The notes: generated from the letters alone by a model not told the origin. DNA of 64,000 bases from Escherichia coli (GCF_003334815.1 NZ_QOWO01000013.1), one strand, 5' to 3'; positions 10,699 through 60,934 are shown, counted from the first letter of the stretch. Numbers and translations are program-made.

Positions 10699-10988
10699 GG
10701 TTCTCTCCCTAAAAATCTGTCTGGCAGGGTAGCGATTTGTGCGCATTGTCACGATTGAGATTTTTTAAGGGGAGGGGAAATTGATAACTTGTAGTTATGT
10801 GAAATCGCTATTTTCTGTAGCAGAGATGCATTCTTCTGACTTCTTGTCTGAGAAAATGCATAAGAAAAAATAGGTTAAAACTGAGGGGGGAAAAGAAAGG
10901 TGCAATATTTAGCCATTGTGTTCACTGCACCTGGACCTTGGCTTACGCATCGGGTGTCTCAATCAACAAAAAGAGTTTTTAGTTTCTG

Positions 10989-11813: not shown

Positions 11814-11856
11814 TGCCCACTCCATGTGATATCAATTGCAAAGAAAGTAAATCTGT

Positions 11857-11876
11857 AACTGTATTTATATACAGTT
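11857..11876 (-). promoter_or_regulatory. LexA (SOS) box upstream of dinD
   Basis: aaCTGTatttatatACAGtt fits the CTGT-N8-ACAG SOS-box consensus. Confidence 0.65.
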
Positions 11877-12033
11877 GTGAGTATCTCACGTTCTCAGTGT
11901 GCTGGGCAAAAAAACATCGCAAAATCTGGAGCAGGCACGCAAAACAGAATTGAATGTTGCGGGGAAGAAAAATGCCGCTCTGTTTGAGTGGCGGCATTTG
12001 TGAAGGCGGAAAAGTAAGAATTGGCGTTACGAG

Positions 12034-13023: not shown

Positions 13024-13740
13024 ATGCGTCCAGCAGGCCGTAGCAATAATCAGGTGCGTCCCGTTACCCTGACTCGTAACTATACAAAACATGCAGAAGG
13101 CTCGGTGCTGGTCGAATTTGGCGATACCAAAGTGTTGTGTACCGCCTCTATTGAAGAAGGCGTGCCGCGCTTCCTGAAAGGTCAGGGCCAGGGCTGGATC
13201 ACCGCAGAGTACGGCATGCTGCCACGTTCTACCCACACCCGTAACGCTCGTGAAGCGGCGAAAGGTAAGCAGGGTGGACGCACAATGGAAATCCAGCGTC
13301 TGATCGCCCGTGCTCTTCGCGCGGCAGTAGATTTGAAAGCGCTGGGTGAGTTCACCATTACGCTGGACTGCGACGTGCTTCAGGCTGATGGTGGCACGCG
13401 TACCGCGTCGATTACGGGTGCCTGCGTGGCGCTGGTAGATGCGCTACAGAAGCTGGTGGAAAACGGCAAGCTGAAAACCAATCCGATGAAAGGGATGGTA
13501 GCCGCAGTTTCTGTCGGAATTGTGAACGGCGAAGCGGTTTGCGATCTGGAATACGTTGAAGACTCTGCCGCAGAGACCGACATGAACGTAGTGATGACCG
13601 AAGACGGGCGCATCATTGAAGTGCAGGGGACGGCAGAAGGCGAGCCGTTCACCCATGAAGAGCTACTCACCTTGTTGGCTCTGGCCCGAGGGGGAATCGA
13701 ATCCATTGTAGCGACGCAGAAGGCGGCGCTGGCAAACTGA
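13024..13740 (+). CDS. rph: ribonuclease PH, full-length 238-aa form
   Basis: ORF track 13000..13740 starts at TTG; conserved start [14 protein letters not shown] at ATG 13024; C-terminus ...[11 protein letters not shown] intact. Confidence 0.92.
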
Positions 13741-19269: not shown

Positions 19270-21034
<1,765 letters not shown>

Positions 21035-21379
21035 AGTAAATAGCTGACTTATGGATGTGCTGGGGATTCTATGTATTTAGCTGTGGCTTTACCATTACTT
21101 TTCCCGTTTTTGACTTAAATAGCTTCAGTTTGGTCTGATCTGCCGCTACATCTTCTTTTTTTTGTATTTTTATGCGATTCATTGAAACTCGGCCCCATTT
21201 TCAAATCTACATAGGCCGTACTGACATTATCGAAATGCTATTTTTTATCTATTTGATTTTTATGATTAAAGTATATTTTGTGTATAAAAATCATTCGGGT
21301 CGGATTGCTGCGAAAGAAATGATACACTAGCACGTCAAAGTAAGTGCGTTATCAGTATTCAGGTAGCTGTTGAGCCTGG

Positions 21380-21391
21380 GGCGGTAGCGTG
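21380..21391 (+). promoter_or_regulatory. ops element (GGCGGTAGCGTG) in the JUMPstart-like leader of the waaQ operon
   Basis: Exact 12-nt ops consensus on the coding-sense strand, 48 nt upstream of the waaQ GTG. Confidence 0.8.
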
Positions 21392-21438
21392 CTTTATTCT
21401 GCTTAACTTAACCAGACAATCACACAAAAGAGTCGCTA

Positions 21439-22509
21439 GTGGAAAAGCCATTTCGAAAAATCCTGGTCATAAAGATGCGATATCATGGGGATATGTTATT
21501 AACTACTCCTGTCATCAGTACGCTCAAGCAGAATTATCCTGATGCAAAAATCGATATGCTGCTTTATCAGGACACCATCCCTATTTTGTCTGAAAACCCG
21601 GAAATTAATGCGCTCTATGGGATAAGCAATAAAGGTGCGGGAACTTTCGATAAAATTAAAAATGTGCTTTCGTTGATAAAAACTCTGCGTGCGAATAATT
21701 ATGACCTGGTCATTAATCTTACGGATCAGTGGATGGTGGCGCTGCTGGTACGTTGTTTACCTGCACGGATGAAAATATCGCAACTTTATGGTCATCGGCA
21801 GCATGGTATTTGGAAAAAAAGCTTCACACACTTAGCGCCAATACACGGTACACATATTGTTGAGCGTAATTTATCGGTCCTTGAGCCATTAGGTATTACC
21901 GATTTCTACACCGACACAACAATGAGTTACGCCGAAGATTGCTGGAAGAAGATGCGCCGGGAATTAGATGCCCTGGGCGTAAAAGATCATTATGTTGTCA
22001 TCCAACCGACAGCGCGTCAGATATTTAAGTGTTGGGATAACGATAAATTTTCTAAGGTTATCGATGCGCTGCAACAGCGAGGCTATCAGGTTGTGCTAAC
22101 CTGTGGGCCCTCGGCAGATGATCTCGCTTGTGTAGATGAGATTGCACGAGGTTGCGAAACAAAACCCATTACTGGCCTTGCAGGTAAAACACGTTTTCCT
22201 GAACTGGGTGCATTAATTGATCATGCAGTGCTTTTTATTGGTGTGGATTCTGCGCCGGGACATATTGCAGCGGCAGTGAAAACGCCAGTCATTAGTCTAT
22301 TTGGTGCAACGGATCACGTATTCTGGCGTCCCTGGACCGAGAATATTATTCAATTCTGGGCGGGGAATTATCAGAAAATGCCGACCCGGCATGAACTTGA
22401 CCGCAACAAAAAATATCTTTCTGTTATCCCAGCGGAGGATGTGATCGCCGCTACGGAAAAGCTGTTGCCAGAAGATGCCCCTTCAGCTGACAGGAATGCA
22501 CAATTATGA
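21439..22509 (+). CDS. waaQ: LPS heptosyltransferase III WaaQ (GT9)
   Basis: ORF track 356 aa from GTG 21439; first in-frame ATG is 21475 (344 aa), see findings. Confidence 0.88.
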   Translation: MEKPFRKILVIKMRYHGDMLLTTPVISTLKQNYPDAKIDMLLYQDTIPILSENPEINALYGISNKGAGTFDKIKNVLSLIKTLRANNYDLVINLTDQWMVALLVRCLPARMKISQLYGHRQHGIWKKSFTHLAPIHGTHIVERNLSVLEPLGITDFYTDTTMSYAEDCWKKMRRELDALGVKDHYVVIQPTARQIFKCWDNDKFSKVIDALQQRGYQVVLTCGPSADDLACVDEIARGCETKPITGLAGKTRFPELGALIDHAVLFIGVDSAPGHIAAAVKTPVISLFGATDHVFWRPWTENIIQFWAGNYQKMPTRHELDRNKKYLSVIPAEDVIAATEKLLPEDAPSADRNAQL

Positions 22510-23630
22510 TCGTGGCGTTTTGTTTATATAAATATTTTCCATTTGGTGGGCTTCAACGTGACTTTATGCGCATTGCATCAACAGTTGCCGCACGGGGCCA
22601 CCATGTTCGGGTATATACACAGTCGTGGGAAGGCGATTGCCCGAAAGCATTTGAGCTTATTCAGGTGCCAGTTAAGTCCCATACCAACCATGGACGCAAT
22701 GCAGAATATTATGCCTGGGTACAAAATCATCTCAAAGAGCATCCCGCAGATCGCGTTGTTGGGTTTAATAAGATGCCTGGCCTGGATGTTTATTTTGCCG
22801 CTGATGTTTGTTACGCCGAGAAAGTTGCGCAAGAAAAAGGTTTTTTATATCGTTTAACATCACGATATCGCCATTATGCCGCATTTGAGCGAGCGACTTT
22901 CGAGCAGGGTAAATCGACGAAACTTATGATGCTGACCGATAAGCAAATCGCCGATTTCCAGAAGCATTATCAAACTGAACCTGAACGTTTTCAAATTCTT
23001 CCTCCCGGTATTTATCCGGACAGAAAATACAGTGAGCAAATCCCAAACAGCCGTGAAATTTATCGCCAGAAAAATGGCATAAAAGAGCAACAAAACTTAT
23101 TACTGCAGGTTGGATCAGATTTTGGCCGTAAAGGTGTAGATCGCTCAATTGAAGCTTTGGCATCGTTACCGGAATCATTACGTCACAATACGCTTTTATT
23201 TGTTGTTGGTCAGGATAAGCCGCGAAAATTTGAAGCGCTGGCAGAAAAACTCGGCGTGCGGAGCAATGTGCATTTCTTCTCCGGTCGCAATGATGTGTCA
23301 GAATTAATGGCAGCCGCTGATTTATTACTGCATCCCGCTTATCAGGAAGCCGCGGGTATCGTTCTTCTAGAAGCGATCACTGCTGGGTTACCTGTTTTAA
23401 CAACAGCGGTATGTGGGTACGCGCATTATATTGCGGATGCCAATTGTGGAACGGTCATCGCTGAACCTTTCTCTCAGGAACAATTAAATGAAGTTTTACG
23501 TAAAGCGTTAACTCAGTCGCCATTGCGAATGGCCTGGGCGGAGAATGCTCGCCATTATGCCGATACTCAGGATTTGTATAGCTTGCCAGAAAAAGCCGCG
23601 GATATCATTACAGGTGGTTTAGATGGTTGA
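22506..23630 (+). CDS. waaG: LPS glucosyltransferase I WaaG (GT4)
   Basis: ORF track 374 aa; start overlaps waaQ stop (ATGA). Confidence 0.94.
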
Positions 23631-24420
23631 ATTAAAAGAGCCGCTTGCCACACTTTGGCGTGGTAAAGATGCTTTTGCAGAGGTCAAAAAACTGAACGGC
23701 GAGGTCTTTCGTGAACTGGAGACTCGTCGTACATTACGCTTTGAACTGTCCGGGAAAAGCTATTTTCTTAAATGGCACAAGGGGACGACATTAAAAGAGA
23801 TTATAAAAAATCTACTCTCATTGCGGATGCCCGTTTTGGGCGCAGACAGAGAGTGGCACGCTATTCATCGCCTGAGTGATGTTGGCGTTGATACAATGAA
23901 GGGCATTGGGTTTGGCGAAAAAGGGTTAAATCCATTAACTCGCGCATCATTTATTATTACCGAAGATCTCACTCCCACAATTAGCCTTGAAGATTATTGT
24001 GCCGATTGGGCAGTCAACCCGCCTGATATACGTGTTAAGCGTATGCTGATCGCACGTGTAGCAACTATGGTGCGTAAAATGCATACTGCAGGGATAAATC
24101 ACCGCGACTGTTACATTTGCCACTTTTTGCTTCATTTGCCATTTACTGGCCGGGAAGATGAATTAAAAATTTCAGTTATCGATCTGCATCGGGCACAGAT
24201 ACGTGCAAAAGTACCGCGCCGCTGGCGCGATAAAGACCTGATTGGTTTATATTTCTCATCAATGAATATTGGCCTGACGCAAAGAGATATCTGGCGATTT
24301 ATGAAGGTTTATTTTGGGATGCCTTTACGCAAAATATTGTCTCTTGAACAGAATTTATTGAACATGGCAAGCGTTAAGGCCGAGCGTATTAAAGAGCGAA
24401 CACAACGCAAAGGATTATAA
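23623..24420 (+). CDS. waaP: LPS core heptose(I) kinase WaaP
   Basis: ORF track 265 aa; kinase-like motif [13 protein letters not shown]; overlaps waaG by 8 nt. Confidence 0.93.
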
Positions 24421-24456
24421 AAATATTTATTAGTATGTACTGGAACTAACTTTATT

Positions 24457-25392
24457 ATGACTATTTATTTTATAAATTGGGTTGCAGATTATGAATTAAA
24501 AATGATTCAGTACCTGAAAAAAAAGTACAAGATAAAAAATATAACAACACCAAAAAAATATAACTGGATTAATAAAAAAATATCAAAAATAGGGATGGAT
24601 AATGCATGGCTGGGGCGATTATTCATCAAGCATTACCTCAATGATATTAAAAAAGATGACATAATTATCATTAATGACAGTGTTGTTAATAAAGGTATCA
24701 ATAAACAAATATTAAAAAATATTAACTGTCATAAAGTTTTGCTTCTAAGAAATACTGTTGGCGAAGATTTTATTCTTGATAACGCGAATTATTTCGATAT
24801 TATATATGATTTTGAGCATAGATTTATAGGGAATGAAAAGATCAAGGCAATAGAACAATTTTTTCCTATAGGAATGGATGAAATTAGAAATTATAGTTTA
24901 TCTGACAAAAATAACAGCCAGCCAATATGTTTTTTCCTTGGTCGTGATAAAGGGCGTCTTCAAATAATTAATGAGTTAGCCGAGAGATTAACAACACTAG
25001 GATGTAAGCTAGATTTTAATGTTGTCAAAGATAAGACATCATCTACGACTTCAAAGTATTTGATTGAAAAACAAATATCTTATGAAGAGAATATTAGAAG
25101 AACATTAAATGCTAATATAATTGTTGATATAACCAAAGAAAACCAATCTGGCTGGACTCTTCGTATACTTGAGGCACTATTTTTCAATAAAAAATTAATT
25201 ACTAATAATATAAATGTATTTGGTTCAGAAATCTATAGTGAATCTCGCTTTTTTATAATAGGTCATGATGATTGGGATAAGTTAGAGTATTTTATTAACT
25301 CATCTGTTAAACCAATGGATTATGATAGTTTATATAAATTCAGTCCAGATAAAATGATGTCAACGATTGTTTCTGATTTTATAGACAAATAA
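24457..25392 (+). CDS. waaS: K-12-type LPS core biosynthesis protein WaaS (RfaS)
   Basis: ORF track 311 aa; very AT-rich, Lys/Asn/Ile-rich; position after waaP typical of the K-12 core type. Confidence 0.8.
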
Positions 25393-25435
25393 AACCGTTA
25401 AAACAGTGAGTTTTACTCAATTAATGAGAGTTTCT

Positions 25436-26515
25436 ATGAAAATAGCGTTTATCGGCGAAGCTGTTTCTGGATTTGGCGGCATGGAAACTGTCATCCGTGA
25501 TGTTATTACTACCTTCAGGCAACAACATATCCAAAGTGAAATGTTTTTCTTTTGTCGTAATGACAAAATGGATAAGGGATGGCTGGAAGGTATTAAATAC
25601 TCATGTTCATTTTCCAATATTCGTTTAGGTTTTTTGCGTCGGGCGAAACATATTCATGCTCTAAGTAAATGGCTTCAGGAGTACCAACCAGATATCGTTA
25701 TTTGTATTGATGTGATCTCCTGCCTGTTTGCCGCAAAAGCACGTAAAAAATCAGGAATTGATATGCCAGTATTTTCATGGCCACATTTTTCTTTAGATCA
25801 CAAAAAACATGCTGAATATATCACCTGTGCCGACTATCATTTAGCAATCAGCTCTGGCATTAAACAGCAAATGATTAATCGAGGTGTAGCAGAATCGACG
25901 ATAAATGTTATTTTTAATCCCGTCGAAACTAAAGACTCAGTCATTCCCGCGCCCGAGGAAGGTGAAACGGCAACGTTTATTTATGTTGGGCGTATGAAAT
26001 TTGAAGGCCAGAAAAGAGTTAAAGACCTGCTTGATGGCTTATCACAAGCGAAAGGTAACTGGAAACTCCATGTATTGGGTGATGGCTCCGATTTCGAAAA
26101 ATGCCAGGCTTATGGTAGAGAATTAAATATTGATGATCGAATTGTCTGGTATGGTTGGCAACAATATCCCTGGGAATTGGTCCAGCAAGATATTGAAAAA
26201 GTGAGTGCGTTATTGCTCACGTCATCTTTTGAAGGTTTCCCAATGACCCTACTTGAAGCCTTGTCGTGGGGGATTCCTTGTATCAGTGCCGATTGTGTCT
26301 CCGGGCCTGCTGACATTATTCAACCTGATGTCAATGGCCATCTGTATCAACCGGGAGATATTGCTGGTTTTGTAACTCTTCTAAATAAATATATAGCAGG
26401 TGAAATTCATATCGAACATGAAAAAATTCCTGCGTCGATCGATGAATTTTACCAATCGAAGTATTACGATAGATTACATAAGGTAATTATTTCTGCTATT
26501 TCCCGGAGGAAATAA
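25436..26515 (+). CDS. waaB: LPS alpha-1,6-galactosyltransferase WaaB (GT4)
   Basis: ORF track 25406..26515 (GTG); conserved start MKIAFIGEAVSGFGGMETV at ATG 25436 (359 aa). Confidence 0.88.
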   Translation: MKIAFIGEAVSGFGGMETVIRDVITTFRQQHIQSEMFFFCRNDKMDKGWLEGIKYSCSFSNIRLGFLRRAKHIHALSKWLQEYQPDIVICIDVISCLFAAKARKKSGIDMPVFSWPHFSLDHKKHAEYITCADYHLAISSGIKQQMINRGVAESTINVIFNPVETKDSVIPAPEEGETATFIYVGRMKFEGQKRVKDLLDGLSQAKGNWKLHVLGDGSDFEKCQAYGRELNIDDRIVWYGWQQYPWELVQQDIEKVSALLLTSSFEGFPMTLLEALSWGIPCISADCVSGPADIIQPDVNGHLYQPGDIAGFVTLLNKYIAGEIHIEHEKIPASIDEFYQSKYYDRLHKVIISAISRRK

Positions 26516-27534
26516 TGCAGCAGGTGTTTTTCCAGGAAACTGAGTTTCTTAATTCAGTTATTGATTATGATCATAAAGTAGAAACAGAAAATCTTTGTCT
26601 GGACATCGCTTATGGAACTGACAAAAACTTTCTATTTGGTTGCGGAATTTCGATTGCTTCAATATTAAAATATAATGAAGGAAGTCGATTGTGTTTCCAT
26701 ATTTTTACTGATTATTTTGGTGATGATGATCGTAAGTATTTTGATGCCCTGGCGTTGCAGTATAAAACCAGAATTAAAATATATCTGATTAATGGTGATC
26801 GACTGCGCTCATTGCCTAGCACTAAGAATTGGACTCATGCAATATATTTTCGTTTTGTTATTGCAGATTACTTTATTAATAAGGCGCCTAAAGTCCTTTA
26901 TCTGGATGCAGATATCATTTGTCAGGGGACTATTGAGCCACTAATTAATTTCTCATTTCCTGACGATAAAGTCGCAATGGTTGTTACAGAAGGGCAAGCT
27001 GACTGGTGGGAAAAACGCGCCCATTCGTTAGGTGTTGCGGGAATTGCTAAAGGTTACTTTAACTCCGGTTTTTTATTGATTAATACTGCCCAATGGGCGG
27101 CTCAGCAGGTTTCTGCACGAGCTATTGCAATGCTAAATGAGCCAGAAATAATCAAAAAAATAACACATCCTGATCAGGATGTGTTAAATATGTTGCTGGC
27201 GGATAAACTTATTTTCGCTGATATTAAATATAACACCCAGTTCAGCTTAAATTATCAACTCAAAGAAAGCTTTATAAACCCAGTAACCAACGATACTATT
27301 TTTATCCATTATATCGGGCCAACCAAGCCCTGGCATGATTGGGCCTGGGATTATCCTGTATCACAAGCCTTTATGGAGGCAAAAAATGCTTCGCCATGGA
27401 AGAATACGGCGTTGCTGAAACCGAACAATAGCAATCAATTAAGATATAGCGCAAAACATATGCTTAAAAAGCATAGATATCTAAAAGGATTTAGCAACTA
27501 TCTTTTTTATTTTATTGAAAAGATAAAGCATTAA
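26515..27534 (+). CDS. waaO: LPS alpha-1,3-glucosyltransferase WaaO (RfaI; GT8)
   Basis: ORF track 339 aa; GT8 DxD region LYLDADIIC; start overlaps waaB stop (TAATG). Confidence 0.88.
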   Translation: MQQVFFQETEFLNSVIDYDHKVETENLCLDIAYGTDKNFLFGCGISIASILKYNEGSRLCFHIFTDYFGDDDRKYFDALALQYKTRIKIYLINGDRLRSLPSTKNWTHAIYFRFVIADYFINKAPKVLYLDADIICQGTIEPLINFSFPDDKVAMVVTEGQADWWEKRAHSLGVAGIAKGYFNSGFLLINTAQWAAQQVSARAIAMLNEPEIIKKITHPDQDVLNMLLADKLIFADIKYNTQFSLNYQLKESFINPVTNDTIFIHYIGPTKPWHDWAWDYPVSQAFMEAKNASPWKNTALLKPNNSNQLRYSAKHMLKKHRYLKGFSNYLFYFIEKIKH

Positions 27535-27573
27535 AACTGGGAAACTATAAAGTAATGATATAAGGGTAGCATT

Positions 27574-28590
27574 GTGGACTCATTTCCTGCCATAGAGATA
27601 GATAAAGTTAAAGCCTGGGATTTTCGGCTAGCTAATATAAATACTTCTGAATGTTTAAATGTTGCCTATGGTGTCGATGCTAATTATCTTGATGGTGTAG
27701 GTGTTTCCATCACATCAATTGTCCTAAATAATCGATATATTAATCTTGATTTTTATATTATTGCTGATGTTTATAATGATGGTTTTTTTCAAAAAATTGC
27801 AAAGCTTGCAGAGCAAAACCAATTAAGAATCACGTTATATAGAATTAACACTGATAAGCTCCAGTGCTTGCCTTGTACACAGGTCTGGTCAAGAGCAATG
27901 TACTTCCGTTTATTTGCATTTCAATTATTGGGTTTAACGCTTGATCGTTTGCTTTATCTTGATGCAGATGTTGTTTGTAAAGGCGATATTAGCCAACTAT
28001 TACATCTGGGTTTAAATGGAGCGGTTGCTGCTGTTGTTAAAGATGTTGAGCCAATGCAAGAAAAGGCGGTATCCAGGTTGTCTGATCCTGAATTACTTGG
28101 GCAGTACTTTAATTCCGGTGTCGTTTATTTAGACTTAAAAAAATGGGCTGACGCAAAACTAACAGAAAAAGCGTTGTCTATTCTTATGAGTAAAGATAAT
28201 GTTTATAAATACCCTGATCAGGATGTTATGAATGTCTTACTGAAAGGGATGACATTATTTTTGCCTCGTGAGTACAATACAATTTATACAATTAAAAGTG
28301 AATTAAAAGACAAAACACATCAAAACTATAAAAAGCTGATTACAGAAAGTACTCTTCTTATTCATTATACAGGTGCAACTAAACCGTGGCACAAATGGGC
28401 AATTTATCCATCGGTAAAATACTATAAAATAGCTTTAGAAAATTCCCCCTGGAAAGATGACTCTCCACGAGATGCGAAATCAATTATTGAATTTAAAAAA
28501 AGATATAAACATCTTTTAGTGCAACATCATTATATCTCAGGAATTATAGCAGGAGTCTGTTATCTTTGCCGAAAATATTACCGTAAATAA
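27574..28590 (+). CDS. waaJ: LPS alpha-1,2-glucosyltransferase WaaJ (RfaJ, also called WaaR; GT8)
   Basis: ORF track 338 aa from GTG 27574; paralogue of preceding GT8 (LYLDADVVC). Confidence 0.86.
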   Translation: MDSFPAIEIDKVKAWDFRLANINTSECLNVAYGVDANYLDGVGVSITSIVLNNRYINLDFYIIADVYNDGFFQKIAKLAEQNQLRITLYRINTDKLQCLPCTQVWSRAMYFRLFAFQLLGLTLDRLLYLDADVVCKGDISQLLHLGLNGAVAAVVKDVEPMQEKAVSRLSDPELLGQYFNSGVVYLDLKKWADAKLTEKALSILMSKDNVYKYPDQDVMNVLLKGMTLFLPREYNTIYTIKSELKDKTHQNYKKLITESTLLIHYTGATKPWHKWAIYPSVKYYKIALENSPWKDDSPRDAKSIIEFKKRYKHLLVQHHYISGIIAGVCYLCRKYYRK

Positions 28591-28607
28591 CATTTAACTG
28601 GTTTATT

Positions 28608-29306
28608 ATGATTCAGAAGAGCAAGATCAAAGACTTGGTTGTTTTTACCGATGAAAACAATTCAAAGTACCTCAATGTATTAAATGACTTCTTGTCTTAT
28701 AATATAAATATCATCAAGGTTTTTCGTTCTATTGATGATACAAAAGTTATGCTTATTGATACCGATTACGGTAAATTGATTCTTAAGGTTTTTTCTCCGA
28801 AAGTTAAGCGTAACGAACGTTTCTTTAAGTCTCTGTTAAAAGGTGATTATTACGAACGCCTTTTTGAGCAAACCCAAAAAGTACGAAATGAAGGGTTAAA
28901 TACACTCAATGACTTTTATTTATTGGCTGAACGGAAAACCTTACGTTTTGTCCATACTTATATCATGATCATCGAGTATATTGATGGCATAGAGTTGTGT
29001 GATATGCCCGATATTGATGATGCGCTAAAAAATAAAATTCAGCAATCAATTAATGCCTTACATCAACATGGCATGGTTTCTGGCGACCCCCATCGTGGTA
29101 ACTTCATTATAAAAAATGGTGAGGTTCGAATTATCGATCTCTCCGGAAAGCGTGCTTCAGCGCAGCGTAAAGCGAAAGATCGTATTGACTTAGAGCGTCA
29201 TTACGGTATTAAAAATGAGATTAGAGATCTAGGCTATTATCTTTTAGTATATCGTAAAAAAATGCGCAATTTTATTCGGCGTTTGAAAGGGAAACCAGCG
29301 CGCTAA
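28608..29306 (+). CDS. waaY: LPS core heptose(II) kinase WaaY
   Basis: ORF track 232 aa; small kinase-like protein (HGMVSGDPHRGNFII). Confidence 0.88.
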   Translation: MIQKSKIKDLVVFTDENNSKYLNVLNDFLSYNINIIKVFRSIDDTKVMLIDTDYGKLILKVFSPKVKRNERFFKSLLKGDYYERLFEQTQKVRNEGLNTLNDFYLLAERKTLRFVHTYIMIIEYIDGIELCDMPDIDDALKNKIQQSINALHQHGMVSGDPHRGNFIIKNGEVRIIDLSGKRASAQRKAKDRIDLERHYGIKNEIRDLGYYLLVYRKKMRNFIRRLKGKPAR

Positions 29307-29376
29307 AAAAAATCCCACAATTACATGTCTTCACCAGGACAGTTTTAAGCGGAGTTATTTATTTCACAGGTTTATC

Positions 29377-30228
29377 ATGAAGAATATTAGATACATTGAC
29401 AAAAAAGATGTTGAAAACCTGATTGAAAATAAAACATCTGATGATGTTATTATTTTTCTTTCGGGCCCTACATCGCAAAAAACACCTTTGTCAGTATTAC
29501 GAACAAAGGATATTATTGCTGTCAATGGTTCTGCGCAATATCTGTTAAGTAATAATATCGTTCCTTTTATATATGTACTTACAGATGTCCGATTTTTACA
29601 TCAGCGTCGTGATGATTTTTATAAATTTAGCCAGAGAAGTCGTTATACCATAGTAAACGTTGACGTTTATGAACACGCTTCCAAAGAAGATAAACTTTAT
29701 ATCCTCCAGAACTGCCTCGTATTACGGTCCTTTTACCGTCGGGAAAAAGGTGGTTTTATAAAGAAGATTAAATTTAATATTTTGAGACAGATTCACAAAG
29801 AACTGCTGATCTCTGTACCGTTGTCTAAAAAAGGTCGTCTGGTTGGATTTTGCAAGGACATTAGTCTTGGTTATTGCTCATGCCATACTATTGCCTTTGC
29901 TGCAATTCAAATCGCATATTCACTTAAGTATGCGCGGATTATTTGTTCTGGTCTTGATTTAACGGGTAGCTGTTCTCGTTTCTATGATGAGAATAAAAAT
30001 CCCATGCCCTCGGAATTAAGTAGGGATTTATTCAAAATATTGCCATTTTTTCGTTTTATGCATGATAATGTAAAAGATATTAATATTTATAATTTATCAG
30101 ATGATACAGCTATTTCTTACGATGTAATTCCATTTATTAAACTTCAAGACATCAGTGCAGAAGAATCAAAAGATATGACAAGAAAAAAAATGCAATATAG
30201 AACTTCAACCGATTCTTATGCTAATTAA
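29377..30228 (+). CDS. waaZ: LPS core biosynthesis protein WaaZ
   Basis: ORF track 283 aa; AT-rich; K-12-type core gene order. Confidence 0.85.
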   Translation: MKNIRYIDKKDVENLIENKTSDDVIIFLSGPTSQKTPLSVLRTKDIIAVNGSAQYLLSNNIVPFIYVLTDVRFLHQRRDDFYKFSQRSRYTIVNVDVYEHASKEDKLYILQNCLVLRSFYRREKGGFIKKIKFNILRQIHKELLISVPLSKKGRLVGFCKDISLGYCSCHTIAFAAIQIAYSLKYARIICSGLDLTGSCSRFYDENKNPMPSELSRDLFKILPFFRFMHDNVKDINIYNLSDDTAISYDVIPFIKLQDISAEESKDMTRKKMQYRTSTDSYAN

Positions 30229-30260
30229 TCATCCTGAAACTAAAATAATATGGTATAAAA

Positions 30261-31334
30261 ATGCGCTTAGGAACTTTTCACAAAAAGAAAAGATTTTATA
30301 TAAACAAAATCAAGATTAATTTCCTTTCTTTTTTATTTCGTAATAAAATAAATAATCAAATTACAGATCCAGCACAAGTTAAATCATGCCTTATTATTCA
30401 TGATAATAATAAACTTGGTGATCTAATTGTATTAAGTTCGATTTATCGTGAACTTTATAGTAAAGGGGTTAAAATAACTCTTCTCACAAATAGAAAGGGT
30501 GGGGAATTTCTCTCTAATAATAAAAATATATTTGAGTTCTGTATTAAAGAATCAACCGGTTTTCTTGAAATGCTTACTCTATGTAAGCATCTGCGGGATT
30601 TACAGTTCGATATTGTATTAGACCCCTTTGAAACTATGCCCTCATTTAAGCATAGCTTAATATTATCAAGTTTAAAAGATTCTTACATTCTGGGTTTTGA
30701 TCATTGGTATAAGCGTTACTATTCATTTTACCATCCCCACGATGAATGTTTAAAAGAACATATGAGTACACGAGCAATAGAAATACTGAAGCATATTTAT
30801 GGTGAGGGTAAATTTTCCACCAACTACGACTTGCATTTACCAGTAGATGTTGAAGATAAAATAAAAGAATTTATTGGAGATACAAGAATAGTCATTATTA
30901 ATCCATTAGGTGCAAAAAAAATATGCCGTCTTACGTTTGAGCAAATAAAAGTTATATATCAAGAAGTGAAAACACACTTTGAAAATTATCGGATTATATT
31001 TACCGGGTTACCGCAAGATTTATTGACAATACCAATACTTGAAATCGAAACACTACCATTTGATGAGTTTATTTATACCGTTGCGTTGACCAAGTATAGT
31101 GATTTTGTCATTTCTGTTGATACAGCTCTTGTTCATATCGCTGCGGCTTATCATAAACCAACGCTTGCATTTTACCCTAATTCACGTACTCCGGAATATC
31201 CCTCGCATTTAATTTGGTCCCCGAATCATCATAAATCTATACAAATAGTATCCCCAACATATACGGTAAAAGATATCGATACTGAAACTTTAACTAATTC
31301 AGTAAAGAGATTAAGTTGTATAGATAAGAAGTGA
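30261..31334 (+). CDS. waaU: LPS heptosyltransferase IV WaaU (RfaK; GT9)
   Basis: ORF track 357 aa; last gene of the plus-strand waaQ operon. Confidence 0.85.
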   Translation: MRLGTFHKKKRFYINKIKINFLSFLFRNKINNQITDPAQVKSCLIIHDNNKLGDLIVLSSIYRELYSKGVKITLLTNRKGGEFLSNNKNIFEFCIKESTGFLEMLTLCKHLRDLQFDIVLDPFETMPSFKHSLILSSLKDSYILGFDHWYKRYYSFYHPHDECLKEHMSTRAIEILKHIYGEGKFSTNYDLHLPVDVEDKIKEFIGDTRIVIINPLGAKKICRLTFEQIKVIYQEVKTHFENYRIIFTGLPQDLLTIPILEIETLPFDEFIYTVALTKYSDFVISVDTALVHIAAAYHKPTLAFYPNSRTPEYPSHLIWSPNHHKSIQIVSPTYTVKDIDTETLTNSVKRLSCIDKK

Positions 31335-31351
31335 GTTTTAACTCACTTCTT
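31326..31351. terminator. perfect 11-bp inverted repeat at the convergent waaU/waaL junction (bidirectional terminator-like hairpin)
   Basis: AAGAAGTGAGT-ttta-ACTCACTTCTT; includes the waaU stop codon and ends 15 nt from the waaL stop. Confidence 0.5.
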
Positions 31352-31365
31352 AAACTTGTTTATTC

Positions 31366-32625
31366 TTAATTAATTGTATTGTTACGATTATTAATGACGA
31401 GTAAGAGGACTATAGCGGATATAATGATAATTGGAATGCTGCGTGCCCATATGATCACATCACTGAGTCCAATCCCCACAATGCCAAGCGTTAATATCAA
31501 CAAACCCAAAGCTCGTTTTTTATATGCTATATAAAATAGTGAAAAATAGAGGAAAAGTGTGGAAAAAATTCCCATCAGACCTTTCAGTGACCCTGCTTCA
31601 ATTATCTCATTATGTAGATGTACGTTAGAAAACTCCAATGCCCCTCTTAGCCTATTGTGTTCTGCAACTAACAAATTCATACTTTCAGCGCGTGACTCTG
31701 CTGATCTAAATGAAAAAGGTGACTTTATGAATATATTTAAACCAATTTCGTACATTGCCAGTCTTGCACCTAGGGAAGTAACACTATTAGCATTGGTATA
31801 ACTGTTTAAGTCATTTAATGCTTCATTATAGCGATTCTGTATTGGTTTATTAAATATAATAACAATGCTAGCTAATATAGCAATTAGTAGAACAATAGAG
31901 GAAGTGAATTTCTTGGGTGATTTATTATAATAAGCTATTAATGCAGCAACACAAATTATAGGGAACAGGAGTAGGGTTGCTCTGGTTTGTGTTAGCGCCA
32001 GAACATAAAGTACCGCGCAACTATTTAATAAAAATAAAAAAGGATGATTTTTCTTAGTATAAAGAATCGCAACGCCACTAACTATCCCTATTAGCATTGT
32101 TGAATATGCTGCTCCTGTTGCCGTTCCTACACCAAAAGAAATGCGGTCATTTTCATGAATGCTATTAATATACATTGCATATCCAGCAATTAGAAATGAC
32201 AGAGAATACAAAGTGTATAATACACTCTCTTTTTTTGATTTTAGCTGGCTAGTTAGTGTCAAGAAAACAATAAAAGAACCAAATATAAATATTTTGGCAG
32301 TATTTAAATAACTATGGTAAGTAGCACGAAATGGCGAATTATCTACTTTAAACGCAGAATACCAAATTAAATCAAGCAAGCCTATTAAAAATATAGAAAG
32401 GGGAAGAATAAGGTTTTTTATATTATAATTTTCTTGTCTGCCACGTAAAATTAGTGACAATAAGCAAACTATAGCAGTGATATTATATATTTTTATGCTG
32501 AAAGTATTATCGACGAATGCAATTATCATTGAAAAAAAACATAATATATAAGTTATTATCTCTAAAATCATTGATGATTTCAGAGTGTAAGGTTTCAATG
32601 AATGAAGTTTAAAGGATGTTAGCAT
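31366..32625 (-). CDS. waaL: O-antigen ligase WaaL
   Basis: ORF track 419 aa; polytopic membrane protein, AT-rich. Confidence 0.88.
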   Translation of the reverse strand: MLTSFKLHSLKPYTLKSSMILEIITYILCFFSMIIAFVDNTFSIKIYNITAIVCLLSLILRGRQENYNIKNLILPLSIFLIGLLDLIWYSAFKVDNSPFRATYHSYLNTAKIFIFGSFIVFLTLTSQLKSKKESVLYTLYSLSFLIAGYAMYINSIHENDRISFGVGTATGAAYSTMLIGIVSGVAILYTKKNHPFLFLLNSCAVLYVLALTQTRATLLLFPIICVAALIAYYNKSPKKFTSSIVLLIAILASIVIIFNKPIQNRYNEALNDLNSYTNANSVTSLGARLAMYEIGLNIFIKSPFSFRSAESRAESMNLLVAEHNRLRGALEFSNVHLHNEIIEAGSLKGLMGIFSTLFLYFSLFYIAYKKRALGLLILTLGIVGIGLSDVIIWARSIPIIIISAIVLLLVINNRNNTIN

Positions 32626-32634
32626 GTTTTACCT

Positions 32635-33594
32635 TTATAATGATGATAACTTTTCCAAAACTGCTTGACTGTTGAGGTTAATTAAATTTTCTCTTGGAGC
32701 CCTACATACCATCTGATTCTTCCCATACCCACCAATTAATCCCGGATCGGTTGGTCCATAAACCGTGATATTGGGTCTATCCAGTGCCGCCGTTAAATGG
32801 CTTAACCCCGTATCCACCGACACTACAAATTTAGCCCCGGCCAGCACGCGGGCAACGCCTTCCAGACTCATCTTCGGCAATACTTCAACATAAGCAAATC
32901 CTTCCGCCAGTCGTTTCGCCCGTTCTTCCTCATGCGGCGCGCCCCACGGAAGTTTAATCCGTATTCCTGAATCAGCCAGTAAACCAATCAATTCTCGCCA
33001 GTGTTCTTCCGGCCAGTGTTTATCATCACGGGTCGTCGCATGAAGAAATACGGCATATTCGCCAGCATCTGTAGGCAGGTTCGTCAGAAAATGCTGTGCG
33101 ATAGCATAATCGCCCTGGGTTTGCGGTTTGCTATAGCCCAAACTTTTGGCAAACAGTTCGCGGGTGCGTTCTACGGCGTGCTGCTGTTTTGCAATATGAT
33201 GCTTACGATTGTAAAACAGGCTGGCTAAAGGTTCGCGAGCGGTTTGCCAGTCCATGCCATGCTTTACGCCATGCGCCAGACGCGTCACCAGCGCCGCGCT
33301 TTTTACCAGCCCCTGAGCGTCGATAACTGCGTCATAGTTCTCTGCTTGTAGCGCTTCACGAAACGCTTTGCGTTCCGCTTTTATGGGGGCCGAGAACCAG
33401 GCTTTACGCCAGCGACGTATTGCCACAGGAATAACTCGCTCAACGGCAGCGTGCCAGGAAGGAATCTGTGCGAACCCTTCTTCCACCACCCAGTCAAACT
33501 TAATCCCTGGGATTGCCTGCTGGGCATCAGTGAGTGCGGGCAACGTATGGAGAACATCGCCCATCGACGATGTTTTAACGATCAAAACCCGCAT
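32635..33594 (-). CDS. waaC: LPS heptosyltransferase I WaaC (GT9)
   Basis: ORF track 319 aa MRVLIVKTSSMGDVLHTLPA... Confidence 0.94.
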   Translation of the reverse strand: MRVLIVKTSSMGDVLHTLPALTDAQQAIPGIKFDWVVEEGFAQIPSWHAAVERVIPVAIRRWRKAWFSAPIKAERKAFREALQAENYDAVIDAQGLVKSAALVTRLAHGVKHGMDWQTAREPLASLFYNRKHHIAKQQHAVERTRELFAKSLGYSKPQTQGDYAIAQHFLTNLPTDAGEYAVFLHATTRDDKHWPEEHWRELIGLLADSGIRIKLPWGAPHEEERAKRLAEGFAYVEVLPKMSLEGVARVLAGAKFVVSVDTGLSHLTAALDRPNITVYGPTDPGLIGGYGKNQMVCRAPRENLINLNSQAVLEKLSSL

Positions 33595-33597
33595 CCG

Positions 33598-34644
33598 TCA
33601 GGCTTCCTCTTGTAACAATAGCGCGTTGAGTTCTTCCAGTACGCGCTGGGGAGTAATGTCGATTAAGCTCTGGTGATAACCCTCCGCAGCGTCACCTTTA
33701 CGCACTTTGTGATAGCCGGTAATCAAACGGATCACGCGCGCTTTATGGGATAGCGGCGGTGTGAAGTCCGGGCTACTCGGACCATACAGGGCAACCAGCG
33801 GACGATTGAGCGCCGCCGCAACATGCATCAGGCCAGAATCGTTAGTGACAATGGCTTTACAGGCTGCAATCAGGATAACCGCTTGATCAAGCTGTGTTTC
33901 CCCCGCCAGGTTCCGACACCATGCCTGCTGCTCGGTATTCAAAGCGGCAAGAATCTCATTGCCCGCTTCATGATCTTTCGCCGAGCCAAACAGAACCACC
34001 TGATAACCTTCATCAATCAGCTGCTTTGCCAGCTCCGCATAGTGGTAGTGTGGCCAGCGTTTTGCCGGACCAAACTCCGCACCCGGGCAAAAACCAATCA
34101 TCGGACGTTCTGATGAAAGCGAAAATTGATTACAGGTATATGATTTTTCACCTTCGCTCACCTGCAACTGCGGCCATAACAATGGCTGCGGCAGATCTTG
34201 TGCTGTGCGCATAATGCCTTTGTCATAGGCCAGCGCTATATAGCGTTCCACCATTAGCGGCCAGGCTTCTTTATCGAGCACGCGTACATCGTTGAGTAAA
34301 CCGTAGCGCATCTCGCCGCGCCAGCCGGTGCGATGAGGAATACCCGCGAAGAAAGGCACTAATGCAGATTTGAAGGAGTTGGGTAAGACGTAGGCGCGGT
34401 CGTAGCGCTTTTCACGCAGGCTATGACCCAGTTTGCGGCGTTCGCCGATTTCCAGCGCTCCGTGACCGAGAGGCATAGGAATAGCTTCGTTAACTTCCGG
34501 CATCCGCGATAATAATGGACGGCACCATGCCGGTGCCATCACATCGATTATCGCCTGGGGATAGCGCGCCTGGAGCGTGCGATAGAGACTTTGCGACATC
34601 ATCATGTCGCCAACCCAAGACGGGCCGATCACCAGTATTTTCAT
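33598..34644 (-). CDS. waaF: LPS heptosyltransferase II WaaF (GT9)
   Basis: ORF track 348 aa MKILVIGPSWVGDMMMSQSL... Confidence 0.94.
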   Translation of the reverse strand: MKILVIGPSWVGDMMMSQSLYRTLQARYPQAIIDVMAPAWCRPLLSRMPEVNEAIPMPLGHGALEIGERRKLGHSLREKRYDRAYVLPNSFKSALVPFFAGIPHRTGWRGEMRYGLLNDVRVLDKEAWPLMVERYIALAYDKGIMRTAQDLPQPLLWPQLQVSEGEKSYTCNQFSLSSERPMIGFCPGAEFGPAKRWPHYHYAELAKQLIDEGYQVVLFGSAKDHEAGNEILAALNTEQQAWCRNLAGETQLDQAVILIAACKAIVTNDSGLMHVAAALNRPLVALYGPSSPDFTPPLSHKARVIRLITGYHKVRKGDAAEGYHQSLIDITPQRVLEELNALLLQEEA

Positions 34645-34653
34645 GCAGAGCTC

Positions 34654-35586
34654 TTATGCGTCGCGATTCAGCCAGGCCATGTATTCCGTTACACCTTCAG
34701 CAACGGTTTTGAACGGTTTGTCGTAACCCGCCGCGCGCAGATTTGTCAGATCTGCCTGAGTGAACGCCTGATAGCGGCCTTTCAGTTTATCCGGGAACGG
34801 AATGTATTCGATCTGGCCTTTCTTGTGATAAGCCAGCGTAGCATCAGCTACCGCCTGGAAGGATTCCGCACGACCAGTACCGAGATTGAAGATGCCGGAA
34901 ACGCCATTTTCCAGGAACCACAGATTCACATCAGCCACGTCGCCCACATAGACGAAGTCGCGTTTGAAGTTCTCGCTACCTTCAAACAGCTTCGGTGATT
35001 CACCGTTGTTAAGCTGGGTGTTGAGATGGAAAGCGACGCTCGCCATGCTGCCTTTATGGCCTTCACGCGGTCCATAAACGTTGAAATAACGGAAGCCAAC
35101 AATCTGCGAGTTCGCTTCAGGCAGGATTTGACGAACATATTCATCAAACAGGAATTTTGAGTAACCGTAGACGTTCAACGGTTTTTCGTACTCGCGGGAT
35201 TCAATAAAGTCGGAGGTGCGTCCGCCGTAGGTGGCTGCGGAAGAAGCGTACAGGAACGGGATTTCACGCTCCAGGCAGTAGTGCAGCAGCTCCTTGGAGT
35301 ATTGATAGTTGTTATCCATCATATACTTGCCGTCCCACTCGGTGGTGGAAGAGCACGCGCCTTCGTGGAAAATCGCTTCGACATCGCCGAACTCTTCGCC
35401 AGCCATAATCTGGATCAGGAAGTCTTCCTTATCCATATAGTCTGCGATATTCAGATCCACCAGGTTCACAAACTTGGTGCCGTCTTTCAGGTTGTCCACC
35501 ACCAGAATATCGGTGATGCCTTTATCATTCAGGGCTTTAACGATGTTGCTGCCGATAAAGCCCGCGCCGCCGGTAACGATGATCAT
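34654..35586 (-). CDS. hldD: ADP-L-glycero-D-manno-heptose 6-epimerase HldD (RfaD)
   Basis: ORF track 310 aa; Rossmann start [16 protein letters not shown]. Confidence 0.95.
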
Positions 35587-35889
35587 AACTGTAACCTTCG
35601 AATTATGGAGTCAGAGACAATCTCAGACACGAATGTCTGTAATCATACCATCACATCCGAATCCCTTCAGCCCTTTACATAGAGGTGCAAGGATGCTAAT
35701 TGCAACAAACTAGTTTGGGTTTTAGCTAGTCCTTCATGGCGGATGTTGGTTTTGCATGTGAATAGTGCTTTAGTATCAATATTCCGATGTATGATAAATA
35801 ACGGAAGCATTTGAATGGATAATATACAGTATACATTCTATTAATATTTATGATATAATTCTTTTTTTATATTAATGGTCTTATTAGTA

Positions 35890-36747
35890 ATGAAATCATC
35901 CACCACAATTATCACTGCATATTTTGACATTGGTAGAGGGGATTGGACTGCTAATAAAGGGTTCCGTGAAAAACTAGCTCGTTCAGTTGATGTTTATTTT
36001 AGTTACTTTGAGCGTCTGGCCGCACTTGAAAATGAGATGATTATTTTCACTTCTCCCGATTTGAAACCAAGGGTTGAAGCGATTCGCAACGGAAAACCAA
36101 CAACGGTTATCGTTATCGATATAAAAAAGAAATTTAGATATATCAGAAGTCGTATCGAAAAAATTCAAAAAGATGAGTCGTTTACAAATAGACTTGAGCC
36201 TCGACAATTAAAAAACCCAGAGTACTGGTCACCAGAGTATGTTTTGGTATGTAACCTTAAGGCCTATTTTGTAAATAAAGCTATCAACATGGGCTTAGTG
36301 AAAACGCCTCTTGTTGCGTGGATAGATTTTGGCTATTGCCGTAAGCCAAATGTAACTCGAGGATTGAAAATTTGGGATTTCCCATTTGATGAAAGTAAGA
36401 TGCATCTTTTCACTATAAAAAAAGGGCTTACTGTCACATCTCAACAACAGGTTTTTGATTTCATGATTGGCAATCATGTATATATTATTGGGGGCGCAAT
36501 TGTTGGTTCACAGCATAAATGGAAAGAATTCTATAAATTAGTTCTGGAAAGTCAAAAAATAACACTAAATAATAACATTGTGGACGATGACCAGGGCATT
36601 TTTGTCATGTGCTATTACAAACGCCCCGATCTCTTCAACCTAAACTATCTGGGGAGAGGAAAATGGTTCGATTTGTTTCGCTGCTTCAGGAGTAACACTT
36701 TAGGGGCAAAAATGCAGGCGCTGAGAATTTTCCTTTCAAGAAAATAG
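35890..36747 (+). CDS. htrL: HtrL/YibB-family protein (function unknown, LPS-cluster associated)
   Basis: ORF track 35875..36747; ATG 35890 gives 285 aa (MKSSTTIITAYFDIGRGDW...); upstream ATG 35875 also possible. Confidence 0.8.
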   Translation: MKSSTTIITAYFDIGRGDWTANKGFREKLARSVDVYFSYFERLAALENEMIIFTSPDLKPRVEAIRNGKPTTVIVIDIKKKFRYIRSRIEKIQKDESFTNRLEPRQLKNPEYWSPEYVLVCNLKAYFVNKAINMGLVKTPLVAWIDFGYCRKPNVTRGLKIWDFPFDESKMHLFTIKKGLTVTSQQQVFDFMIGNHVYIIGGAIVGSQHKWKEFYKLVLESQKITLNNNIVDDDQGIFVMCYYKRPDLFNLNYLGRGKWFDLFRCFRSNTLGAKMQALRIFLSRK

Positions 36748-36793
36748 GTTTCCCTCCATTAGTGGGTAGCGTTTTGATACCAACTGAGATAGG

Positions 36794-36826
36794 AAAAATG
36801 ATGCTTTGGCATCATTTTTTCTTTTT
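36794..36826 (+). terminator. intrinsic terminator downstream of htrL
   Basis: AAAAATGATGC-tttg-GCATCATTTTT hairpin running into a T-rich tract. Confidence 0.55.
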
Positions 36827-37021
36827 ATATCAATGCAGTAAAATCAATCATCATTATGCCCAGCCAAAACTGTACAGTTTTTCTACTATCTGTAGGTGTT
36901 GAGAGACATCAAGTTACACGTTATTTATCCTGAATTTTGCAGAAGTGTTAACGCGTTATCTCGTCGCGACCTATAAGTTTGGGTAATATGTGCTGGAATT
37001 TGCCCTGTCTGGAGAATCGCA

Positions 37022-39491: not shown

Positions 39492-40526
39492 ATGATGAAC
39501 AGCACCAATAAACTTAGTGTTATTATTCCGTTATATAATGCGGGCGATGATTTCCGCACTTGTATGGAATCTTTAATTACGCAAACCTGGACTGCTCTGG
39601 AAATCATTATTATTAACGATGGTTCAACGGATAATTCTGTTGAAATAGCAAAGTATTACGCAGAAAACTATCCGCACGTTCGTTTGTTGCATCAGGCGAA
39701 TGCTGGCGCATCGGTGGCGCGTAATCGTGGGATTGAAGTGGCAACGGGCAAATATGTCGCTTTTGTCGATGCTGACGATGAAGTCTATCCCACCATGTAC
39801 GAAACGCTGATGACCATGGCGTTAGAGGACGACCTCGACGTGGCGCAGTGCAACGCTGACTGGTGTTTTCGTGAAACGGGAGAAACCTGGCAATCCATCC
39901 CCACCGATCGCCTTCGCTCAACCGGCGTATTAACCGGCCCGGACTGGCTGCGGATGGGGCTTTCTTCGCGCCGTTGGACTCACGTTGTCTGGATGGGGGT
40001 TTATCGCCGTGATGTTATTGTTAAAAATAACATTAAATTTATTGCCGGATTACATCATCAGGATATTGTCTGGACAACAGAATTCATGTTTAACGCGCTG
40101 CGTGCGCGATATACCGAGCAATCATTATATAAATATTATCTGCATAATACGTCAGTGAGTCGGTTGCATAGACAAGGGAATAAAAACCTTAATTATCAAC
40201 GTCACTATATTAAGATTACCCGCCTGCTGGAGAAATTAAATCGAAATTATGCCGACAAAATTATGATTTATCCGGAATTTCATCAGCAAATAACTTACGA
40301 GGCATTGCGTGTTTGCCATGCGGTGCGCAAAGAGCCGGATATTCTTACCCGCCAACGGATGATTGCCGAGATATTTACTTCCGGTATGTATAAGCGCCTG
40401 ATTACCAATGTGCGCAGCGTGAAGGTCGGTTACCAGGCGTTACTGTGGTCTTTCCGCTTATGGCAATGGCGCGACAAAACGCGGTCGCACCATCGCATTA
40501 CGCGTAGCGCCTTTAATTTGCGCTAG
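39492..40526 (+). CDS. waaH: family 2 glycosyltransferase WaaH (YibD)
   Basis: ORF track 344 aa; GT2 N-terminus LSVIIPLYNAG...IIIINDGSTDNS and DxD (FVDADDE). Confidence 0.88.
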   Translation: MMNSTNKLSVIIPLYNAGDDFRTCMESLITQTWTALEIIIINDGSTDNSVEIAKYYAENYPHVRLLHQANAGASVARNRGIEVATGKYVAFVDADDEVYPTMYETLMTMALEDDLDVAQCNADWCFRETGETWQSIPTDRLRSTGVLTGPDWLRMGLSSRRWTHVVWMGVYRRDVIVKNNIKFIAGLHHQDIVWTTEFMFNALRARYTEQSLYKYYLHNTSVSRLHRQGNKNLNYQRHYIKITRLLEKLNRNYADKIMIYPEFHQQITYEALRVCHAVRKEPDILTRQRMIAEIFTSGMYKRLITNVRSVKVGYQALLWSFRLWQWRDKTRSHHRITRSAFNLR

Positions 40527-60925: not shown

Positions 60926-60934
60926 CTATTGCTT

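Follow-up and report, generated by a model that had tools for sequence, protein, structure and literature searches.

The waa locus, which determines the lipopolysaccharide (LPS) core, lies within a stretch of 64,000 nucleotides (nt) of Escherichia coli DNA (GCF_003334815.1, NZ_QOWO01000013.1; the whole stretch is called the window below), and the middle of the locus is strongly AT-rich. This middle is the K-12-type variable part of the locus, and we consider it probable that its low guanine plus cytosine (G+C) content is an old and stable property of the locus itself, not the mark of a recent foreign donor. Five core types, K-12 and R1 to R4, are reportedly distinguished in E. coli, a description attributed to Heinrichs, Whitfield and colleagues in 1998. 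Core type sets phage receptors, sensitivity to serum and antimicrobial peptides, and the O-antigens that can be ligated.

Both the compositional pattern and the inference of transfer have been published before (Leclercq et al., 2021; PMC8715443). According to that work, the five waa regions have common conserved ends, waaDFC and waaA-waaQGP; their G+C is that of the core genome at waaDFC and waaA, slightly lower at waaQGP and markedly lower centrally; no phage, insertion sequence (IS) or transposon remnants are present; transfer by homologous recombination is the likely origin; and the sequence type complex STc131 has a K-12 core. An earlier note on the window, made from the sequence alone, described the same feature, which is textbook-level, real and correctly located, and its reading was broadly right. 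What we add are edges at the level of single bases, the split of waaQGP with counts of mosaic genomes, K-12-like cassettes beyond Escherichia and Shigella, and a test of the direction of substitution. The only moderately novel thread is that of low G+C as an ancient equilibrium of allelic classes common to several genera.

Composition and edges of the low-G+C block

The earlier note had placed an AT-rich block from waaS to waaL, and sliding-window G+C, per-gene G+C and G+C at third codon positions (GC3) all confirm it. G+C is 33.2% at 24421-32630, compared with 50.9% outside 21035-32630 and 48.2% in the whole window. The 500-nt profile runs at about 0.53 in waaA, at 0.38-0.48 over 21000-24250 and at 0.26-0.40 over 24250-32750, and on the right it has recovered to at least 0.51 by 32750, within about 300 nt past 32630. 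Among the block genes, G+C is lowest in waaS (0.268), followed by waaU (0.310), waaL (0.319), waaZ (0.326), waaJ (0.337), waaY (0.352), waaO (0.362) and waaB (0.396); the comparison genes waaA, waaC, waaF and hldD have 0.539, 0.510, 0.537 and 0.509. Codon positions 1, 2 and 3 are all lowered in the block genes. Mean GC3 is 0.278 for the eight block genes, 0.396 for waaQGP and 0.550 for the 46 other genes of the window (Mann-Whitney: block vs others p=5.8e-8; waaQGP vs others p=0.006; block vs waaQGP p=0.012), and the calculation of G+C and codon usage proposed in the earlier note thus sets the block clearly apart from its flanks. Indeed, codons ending in A or T make up 72.4% in the block vs 42.3% in the other genes, and Lys, Asn and Ile together 24.9% vs 14.3% of residues, as had been noticed from the sequence. 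The share of AUA among Ile codons is 0.31 in the block vs 0.05 elsewhere in the window, that of AGA plus AGG among Arg codons 0.32 vs 0.03, and that of CUG among Leu codons 0.12 vs 0.54. Ordinary composition, which had been ascribed to all flanking inner-core genes, holds for waaA, waaC, waaF and hldD (0.51-0.54) but not for waaQ, waaG and waaP, which form an intermediate tier with G+C of 0.434-0.448 (about 44%) and GC3 of 0.37-0.41 (about 0.40).

These figures also bear on the idea that low G+C follows from protein function, as it might in membrane proteins rich in Ile, Phe and Leu, to which we give almost no credence. WaaL would suit it, being an integral membrane ligase in which Phe, Tyr, Met, Ile, Asn and Lys (FYMINK) make up 0.39 of the protein. 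However, the products of seven of the eight block genes are a kinase and glycosyltransferases that are soluble or peripheral, relatives of much higher G+C are encoded outside the block (WaaQ, WaaC and WaaF of glycosyltransferase family 9 (GT9), WaaG of GT4, and the kinase WaaP), and it is GC3, largely free of protein constraint, that falls most (0.28 vs 0.55). This last observation refutes amino-acid function as an explanation of the low G+C.

Jensen-Shannon entropy segmentation, run on the whole window and blind to gene annotation, gave breakpoints at 21017, 24229 and 32695, with segment G+C of 0.525, 0.438, 0.332 and 0.483. The compositional block is slightly wider than 24421-32630, and takes in ~63 codons at the end of waaP and ~20 at the end of waaC:

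24230..32695, no strand assigned: low-G+C, core-type-specific block (G+C 0.332; from segmentation and loss of homology)
32635..32695, minus strand: 3' end of waaC, last ~20 codons, AT-rich and type-specific, the right junction (from the drop in identity against R1, R3 and R4)

We compared these edges with one representative of each core type, namely ST131 (L004, a K-12-type variant), R2 (L005), R3 (L006), R1 (L007) and R4 (L008). Homology to R1, R3 and R4 extends from 19500 to 24316 and is found again from 32678-32714; in between, these three types align only at waaO and waaY, with 64-68% identity. The right edge is sharp, with 36-50% identity to R1, R3 and R4 at 32600-32699 and 92-99% from 32700. 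It lies ~20 codons inside the 3' end of waaC, a gene whose annotated length (957-993 nt) differs between types. Loss of homology and the break in composition coincide in this comparison, which the earlier note had suggested, and the low-G+C block is the core-type-specific module of the locus.

Compared with the window, R2 has two sub-cassettes exchanged: at 24330-25435, which is unalignable, a gene of glycosyltransferase family 8 (GT8) stands in place of waaS, the most AT-rich gene, and at 30141-32695 waaK and the R2 waaL stand in place of waaU-waaL. This agrees with the description of R2 as a K-12 hybrid in a typing paper of 2025 (PMC13293308). The sub-cassette between them, waaB-waaZ (25436..30228), is present in R2 with 81-95% DNA identity and more distantly in Salmonella, its proteins being 56-71% identical to those of Salmonella arizonae.

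The waaQGP genes are part of the diverged region as well, since identity to R1, R3 and R4 is 62-84% from ~21035-21100, directly after waaA, to 24100; waaA itself is 96-100% identical. In E. coli, waaQGP falls into two deep allele classes (62-84% DNA identity, 71% protein identity for WaaQ): the alleles of R1, R3, R4 and ST131 are 62-84% identical to the window and that of R2 86-98%. Of the two classes, K-12/R2 lies closer to Salmonella and Intestinirhabdus, and R1/R3/R4 closer to Citrobacter and Pluralibacter. Overall, the locus is three-tiered, with conserved flanks of normal G+C (coaD-waaA and waaC-waaF-hldD) that are virtually identical across E. coli, an intermediate waaQGP, and an AT-rich, unalignable middle.

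Gene content and exchange within E. coli

At 99.98% identity, the window matches E. coli NZ_CM129847, in which RefSeq annotates waaA on the minus strand, rfaQ-rfaG-rfaP-rfaS-waaB-waaO-rfaJ-rfaY-waaZ-waaU on the plus strand and waaL-rfaC-rfaF-rfaD on the minus strand. Each annotated gene of the cluster is an intact open reading frame (ORF) in the window, including:

21439-22509, plus strand: waaQ (annotation transfer)
22506-23630, plus strand: waaG (annotation transfer)
23623-24420, plus strand: waaP (annotation transfer)
24457..25392, plus strand: waaS, WaaS/CpsH-family glycosyltransferase (NCBIfam NF053598, 179 bits)
25436-26515, plus strand: waaB (equivalog match)
26515-27534, plus strand: waaO, GT8 (equivalog match)
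27574-28590, plus strand: waaJ, GT8 paralogue of WaaO (annotation)
28608-29306, plus strand: waaY (equivalog match)
29377-30228, plus strand: waaZ (equivalog match)
30261..31334, plus strand: waaU, GT9-family glycosyltransferase, K-12-type-specific, last gene of the waaQ operon (annotation, weak GT9 match)
31366..32625, minus strand: waaL, O-antigen ligase, K-12-specific allele, transcribed with waaC, waaF and hldD (annotation)

In the NCBIfam scan, the WaaS/CpsH-family glycosyltransferase, WaaB, WaaO, WaaY and WaaZ scored above cutoff. WaaJ stayed below the cutoff of the WaaO model, the two being GT8 paralogues with 34% identity; WaaU had weak GT9 matches only, and WaaL had no NCBIfam model match, although its syntenic gene in a Citrobacter contig (L028) carries Pfam Wzy_C. 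The waaQ segment 21500-22400 is 100% identical to TG1 and to an O16:H48 strain, and waaU-waaL (30261-32600) is 100% identical to the K-12 laboratory strains ER1709 and CJ236. The K-12 type-specific waaS, waaU and waaL allele are all present, and the stretch that holds them is unalignable in the R1-R4 representatives; gene order is that of K-12, with waaQ-G-P-S-B-O-J-Y-Z-U on one strand and waaL-C-F-hldD convergent. Judged by gene content, order and identity to K-12 strains, the cluster is of the K-12 core type, and annotation, NCBIfam matches and strain identity bear out the earlier recognition of waaS-waaB-waaO-waaJ-waaY-waaZ-waaU as the K-12 combination. Identity with the laboratory strains would predict a K-12 core oligosaccharide structure. 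The name outer-core module, also given in the earlier note, is apt in that the block matches the region in which the core types diverge, but it is a loose label. As named by RefSeq and NCBIfam, the waaG product (glucosyltransferase I, which adds the first outer-core sugar) is encoded outside the block, and inside it lie genes for the HepII kinase (waaY), the KdoIII transferase (waaZ), a glycosyltransferase (waaS) and the ligase (waaL).

Among 5426 complete E. coli genomes, 1033 carry the K-12 waaU-waaL and 956 a waaQ of the K-12/R2 class (~459 at 95% identity or higher, 497 at 90-95%, the R2 allele). Since only ~459 genomes have a closely matching waaQ, ~570 genomes with a K-12 block, ST131-like, are mosaics with the other waaQGP allele class. 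The ST131 representative itself is 85-99% identical to the window (mostly at least 94%) from ~24200 to 35600 and 62-84% identical over waaQGP, with a recombination breakpoint inside waaP. Read from these alignments, the mosaics are direct evidence that parts of the locus have been exchanged within E. coli, and the comparisons show that whole or partial cassettes move between lineages, with breakpoints in waaP, in the end of waaC, and around waaS and waaU-waaL.

The cluster bears no sign of a mobile element. A search for flanking direct or inverted repeats returned only short matches with 66-95% identity, at chance level for AT-rich DNA, and flanking repeats were rejected as an insertion signature. 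Annotation of the cluster lists no integrase, IS or tRNA gene (no tRNA scan was run). The locus does not qualify as a mobile genomic island.

The locus in other genera and the origin of its low G+C

Scanning one genome per species with an alignment of WaaY yielded 19 loci, and all the long ones are syntenic, with coaD-waaA, waaQGP, variable genes and waaC-waaF-hldD-kbl. The dip in G+C is present at all 16 syntenic loci (seven genera and one unclassified metagenome-assembled genome (MAG) of the Enterobacteriaceae), the block lying 0.12-0.21 below the flanks; its position at the locus does not change between the five E. coli types, Salmonella, Citrobacter, Kosakonia, Intestinirhabdus and Pluralibacter. 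Examples are Pluralibacter gergoviae, with 0.413 in the block vs 0.625 in the flanks, and Intestinirhabdus, with 0.483 vs 0.606. Block G+C tracks flank G+C, with r=0.87 for n=11 related taxa and no phylogenetic correction. The K-12 arrangement recurs too. Kosakonia cowanii and Intestinirhabdus alba have waaB-O-J-Y-Z-U/waaL, and one Citrobacter contig (L028/L029, whose species name is only the NCBI protein label 'Citrobacter amalonaticus') has the full K-12 order waaQGPSBOJYZU/waaL-C-F, at 6969-20297 in L028. Proteins of L028 are 51-69% identical to those of the window in the block and 86-96% in the flanks, and waaS is again the most AT-rich gene (0.33). At the level of protein and synteny, these clusters contradict Leclercq et al. 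(PMC8715443), who reported finding no counterpart of the central region beyond Escherichia and Shigella; the same cassette classes do occur in other genera of the Enterobacteriaceae. At its end, L029 has a fragment of an IS1 transposase after waaY. We also considered whether K-12-like and R1-like cassettes occur within one Citrobacter species (L028 vs L025), and rejected this, as the flanks are ~79-83% identical and the species different.

In the gene trees, WaaA and WaaF, which are 99-100% identical across the E. coli core types, yield a branching like that of the species. WaaY of K-12 is 52-53% identical to that of R1, R3 and R4 and 63-68% identical to that of Salmonella, Kosakonia and Intestinirhabdus; the WaaY of R1 shares 87% identity with Pluralibacter and 81% with C. 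amalonaticus, and R3 groups with Citrobacter sp. R56. The WaaQ tree splits like that of WaaY. All trees were made by neighbour-joining on raw identity, with no support values. Because WaaY and WaaQ group the E. coli types with different genera, the cassette classes either predate genus boundaries or have crossed them.

The earlier note took the break in composition to be consistent with horizontal acquisition or exchange. Exchange is borne out by the mosaics and by gene trees that depart from the species tree; the break itself is no evidence of acquisition by the K-12 lineage, because the five E. coli types and five other genera all have this dip. A recent import from a low-G+C donor, by the K-12 lineage or by E. 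coli, and not yet ameliorated, is the classical reading and the one adopted by Leclercq et al. (2021; PMC8715443). G+C ~20 points under that of the host and the enrichment of AUA, AGA/AGG and UUA agree with it, as does the custom of calling RfaH targets horizontally acquired (PMC5449661). We nevertheless regard it as very improbable. The dip keeps its place throughout the five E. coli types and five other named genera, and it scales with host G+C, the full K-12 order in Citrobacter at just 51-69% protein identity implies great age, and the cluster has no annotated integrase, tRNA or IS and no flanking repeat that we could find. For WaaS, a search of 5.8 billion proteins (word-based, and able to miss distant relatives) returned no closer low-G+C donor: the relatives retrieved are enterobacterial, at 49-55% identity in Citrobacter spp., and next come Pseudomonas-like proteins at 31-33%. 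The family name WaaS/CpsH might point to low-G+C Gram-positive bacteria as the source of waaS, a possibility rejected on the same grounds.

The direction of substitution speaks to the same question. We polarised differences between the window and ST131 over waaB-waaZ, with R2 as outgroup, and counted 78 changes from GC to AT vs 76 from AT to GC in the block; the resulting equilibrium G+C is 0.348, and current G+C is 0.354. Changes in the two directions are thus balanced, which a recent import would not lead one to expect, and on the recent time scale the block shows no drift towards host G+C. With balanced changes, and with the dip in 16/16 syntenic loci, the block does not look like recently acquired, unadapted foreign DNA. 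In the flanks, where substitutions are few, equilibrium G+C is 0.33-0.43 vs a current 0.53.

A different possibility is that AT-richness is itself selected, either for control by H-NS, Rho and RfaH or for rare codons that limit the enzymes, coupling core synthesis to envelope regulation. The leader of waaQ carries the relevant signal:

21353..21391, plus strand: JUMPstart with ops site (GGCGGTAGCGT, 21380-21390) in the waaQ leader (Rfam RF01707)

RF01707 scored 55.2 bits (gathering score 35; E=1.6e-10). The ops consensus GGCGGTAGnnT has one exact match only in the window, on the non-template strand 49 nt 5' of the waaQ start and within JUMPstart, the arrangement of an RfaH-dependent operon; an Rfam scan over 20500-37000 found nothing besides JUMPstart. 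The JUMPstart/ops element would recruit RfaH to the long operon that traverses the AT-rich block. According to published work, H-NS binds waa, which is RfaH- and Rho-dependent (PMC5449661, PMC9765446), and expression of the distal waa genes needs RfaH in MG1655 (PMC5449661). Selection for AT-richness would draw on this conserved upstream element, on the strong enrichment of rare codons, and on the dip being kept in every genus examined despite 30-50% protein divergence. It is, however, an unlikely explanation, since the three codon positions and the amino acids are shifted alike, which suggests a general mutational or compositional pressure and not tuning of codons or sites. In addition, the most type-specific parts are the most AT-rich (waaS 0.268; waaU and waaL 0.31-0.32), a gradient that suits fewer recombination partners and faster evolution at least equally well.

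The explanation we favour, an old and stable low G+C of the locus, would work as follows. Cassettes would be exchanged by homologous recombination in the conserved flanks, and the cassette classes would be old alleles, long resident at the locus and kept by diversifying selection on surface structure from phages and immunity. Because the classes are old and long resident, their low G+C would not be the fingerprint of a recent donor but a stable equilibrium of the locus, ~12-21 points under the host, at which AT-biased mutation dominates in genes that are weakly expressed, fast-evolving and without homologous partners for GC-favouring recombination or repair. Being AT-rich, the DNA of the block would be bound by H-NS and subject to Rho-dependent polarity, and transcription would pass through the whole operon only with RfaH loaded at the ops/JUMPstart site ahead of waaQ. 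A more specific version can be put forward tentatively, as something that may well be true but that we would not yet bet on: that the cassettes are ancient allelic classes spread across genera of the Enterobacteriaceae, with low G+C a self-maintaining mutational equilibrium of non-homologous cassettes that escape GC-favouring recombination. K-12-like, R1/R4-like and R3-like lineages would then be nearer to Citrobacter, Salmonella, Kosakonia or Pluralibacter than to other E. coli.

Several points weigh against an old equilibrium. The flank estimates draw on few substitutions and are all below current G+C, as is usual within a species, which makes the contrast between block and flank weak. When K-12 and R2 are taken as sisters and E. 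albertii as outgroup, the equilibrium of the block becomes 0.42, above the current 0.35, and a slow upward trend in G+C over the long term is thus possible. The correlation across genera rests on 11 related taxa and is not phylogenetically corrected, and the neighbour-joining trees on raw identity have no support values. In the present data, ancient polymorphism common to several genera looks the same as ancient transfer from one genus to another. Lastly, the causes named for the low G+C, namely mutation bias, weak selection and little GC-favouring recombination, are ones that we infer.

Other features and comparison with known systems

A hairpin lies between the convergent waaU and waaL; it is terminator-like in form and may act in both directions:

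31325..31352, plus strand: hairpin with a perfect 12-bp stem in the 31-nt gap between waaU and waaL (consensus scan)

The same scan found no excess over shuffled sequence, with 48 promoter-like sites vs 47.6 expected and 10 terminator-like sites vs 8.7.

A second AT-rich islet, at 35635-36917 between hldD and kbl, holds yibB/htrL (coding sequence 35890-36747, G+C 0.372). The window, the R3 representative and two Citrobacter loci (YibB 81-82% identical) have this islet, and the ST131, R1, R2 and R4 representatives do not; no match to YibB was found in the Salmonella, Kosakonia and Pluralibacter loci. Four MAG contigs of 1.5-4.8 kb (L010, L011, L023 and L027), which carry the labels Bacilli, Streptococcus, Candidatus Coprosoma and Planococcaceae, match waa outer-core blocks of E. 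coli (K-12, K-12-like, R3 and R4) at 97-100% identity and have G+C of 0.32-0.34. These Firmicutes-labelled contigs are almost certainly E. coli DNA mis-binned by composition. Elsewhere in the window, a low-G+C segment at 59345-63703 (0.382) contains yibA, yibG and remnants of Rhs elements, and waaH (39492-40526), which is separate from the cluster and codes for an LPS glucuronic acid transferase, has a moderately reduced G+C of 0.460. The rph gene (13024-13740) is an intact ORF of 717 nt; MG1655 and W3110 carry the rph-1 frameshift, so the window may stem from a different strain with a K-12 core. The dinD region (10699-12033) is without the IS600 insertion seen in NZ_CM129847.

Exact edges of the exchangeable units, in waaP and waaC and at the sub-junctions around waaS and waaU-waaL, should aid core typing in silico and strain engineering. 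A caution follows for composition as a criterion: low G+C is routinely taken as recent foreign DNA, and here it appears to be old and stable in a polymorphic surface-polysaccharide locus.

Among known systems, the K-12 waa cluster is identical to the locus of the window in gene content and order, with no difference in the object itself. Genomic and pathogenicity islands resemble it in deviant G+C and codon usage, variation between strains and H-NS binding. Unlike such islands, the waa locus has no annotated integrase, tRNA site or mobility gene, and no direct repeat was found; each strain has a version at the same site, which is allelic replacement and not presence or absence, and composition appears to be at equilibrium instead of moving towards the host. 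The O-antigen (rfb/wb*) and group 2 capsule (kps) clusters are likewise AT-rich polysaccharide cassettes at a fixed site with conserved flanks. Homologous recombination exchanges these cassettes too, H-NS binds them, and their expression goes via ops/JUMPstart and RfaH. E. coli has more than 180 O-antigen types vs about five waa cassette types, and in contrast to the O-antigen and capsule clusters, the waa locus mixes essential inner-core genes with variable ones.

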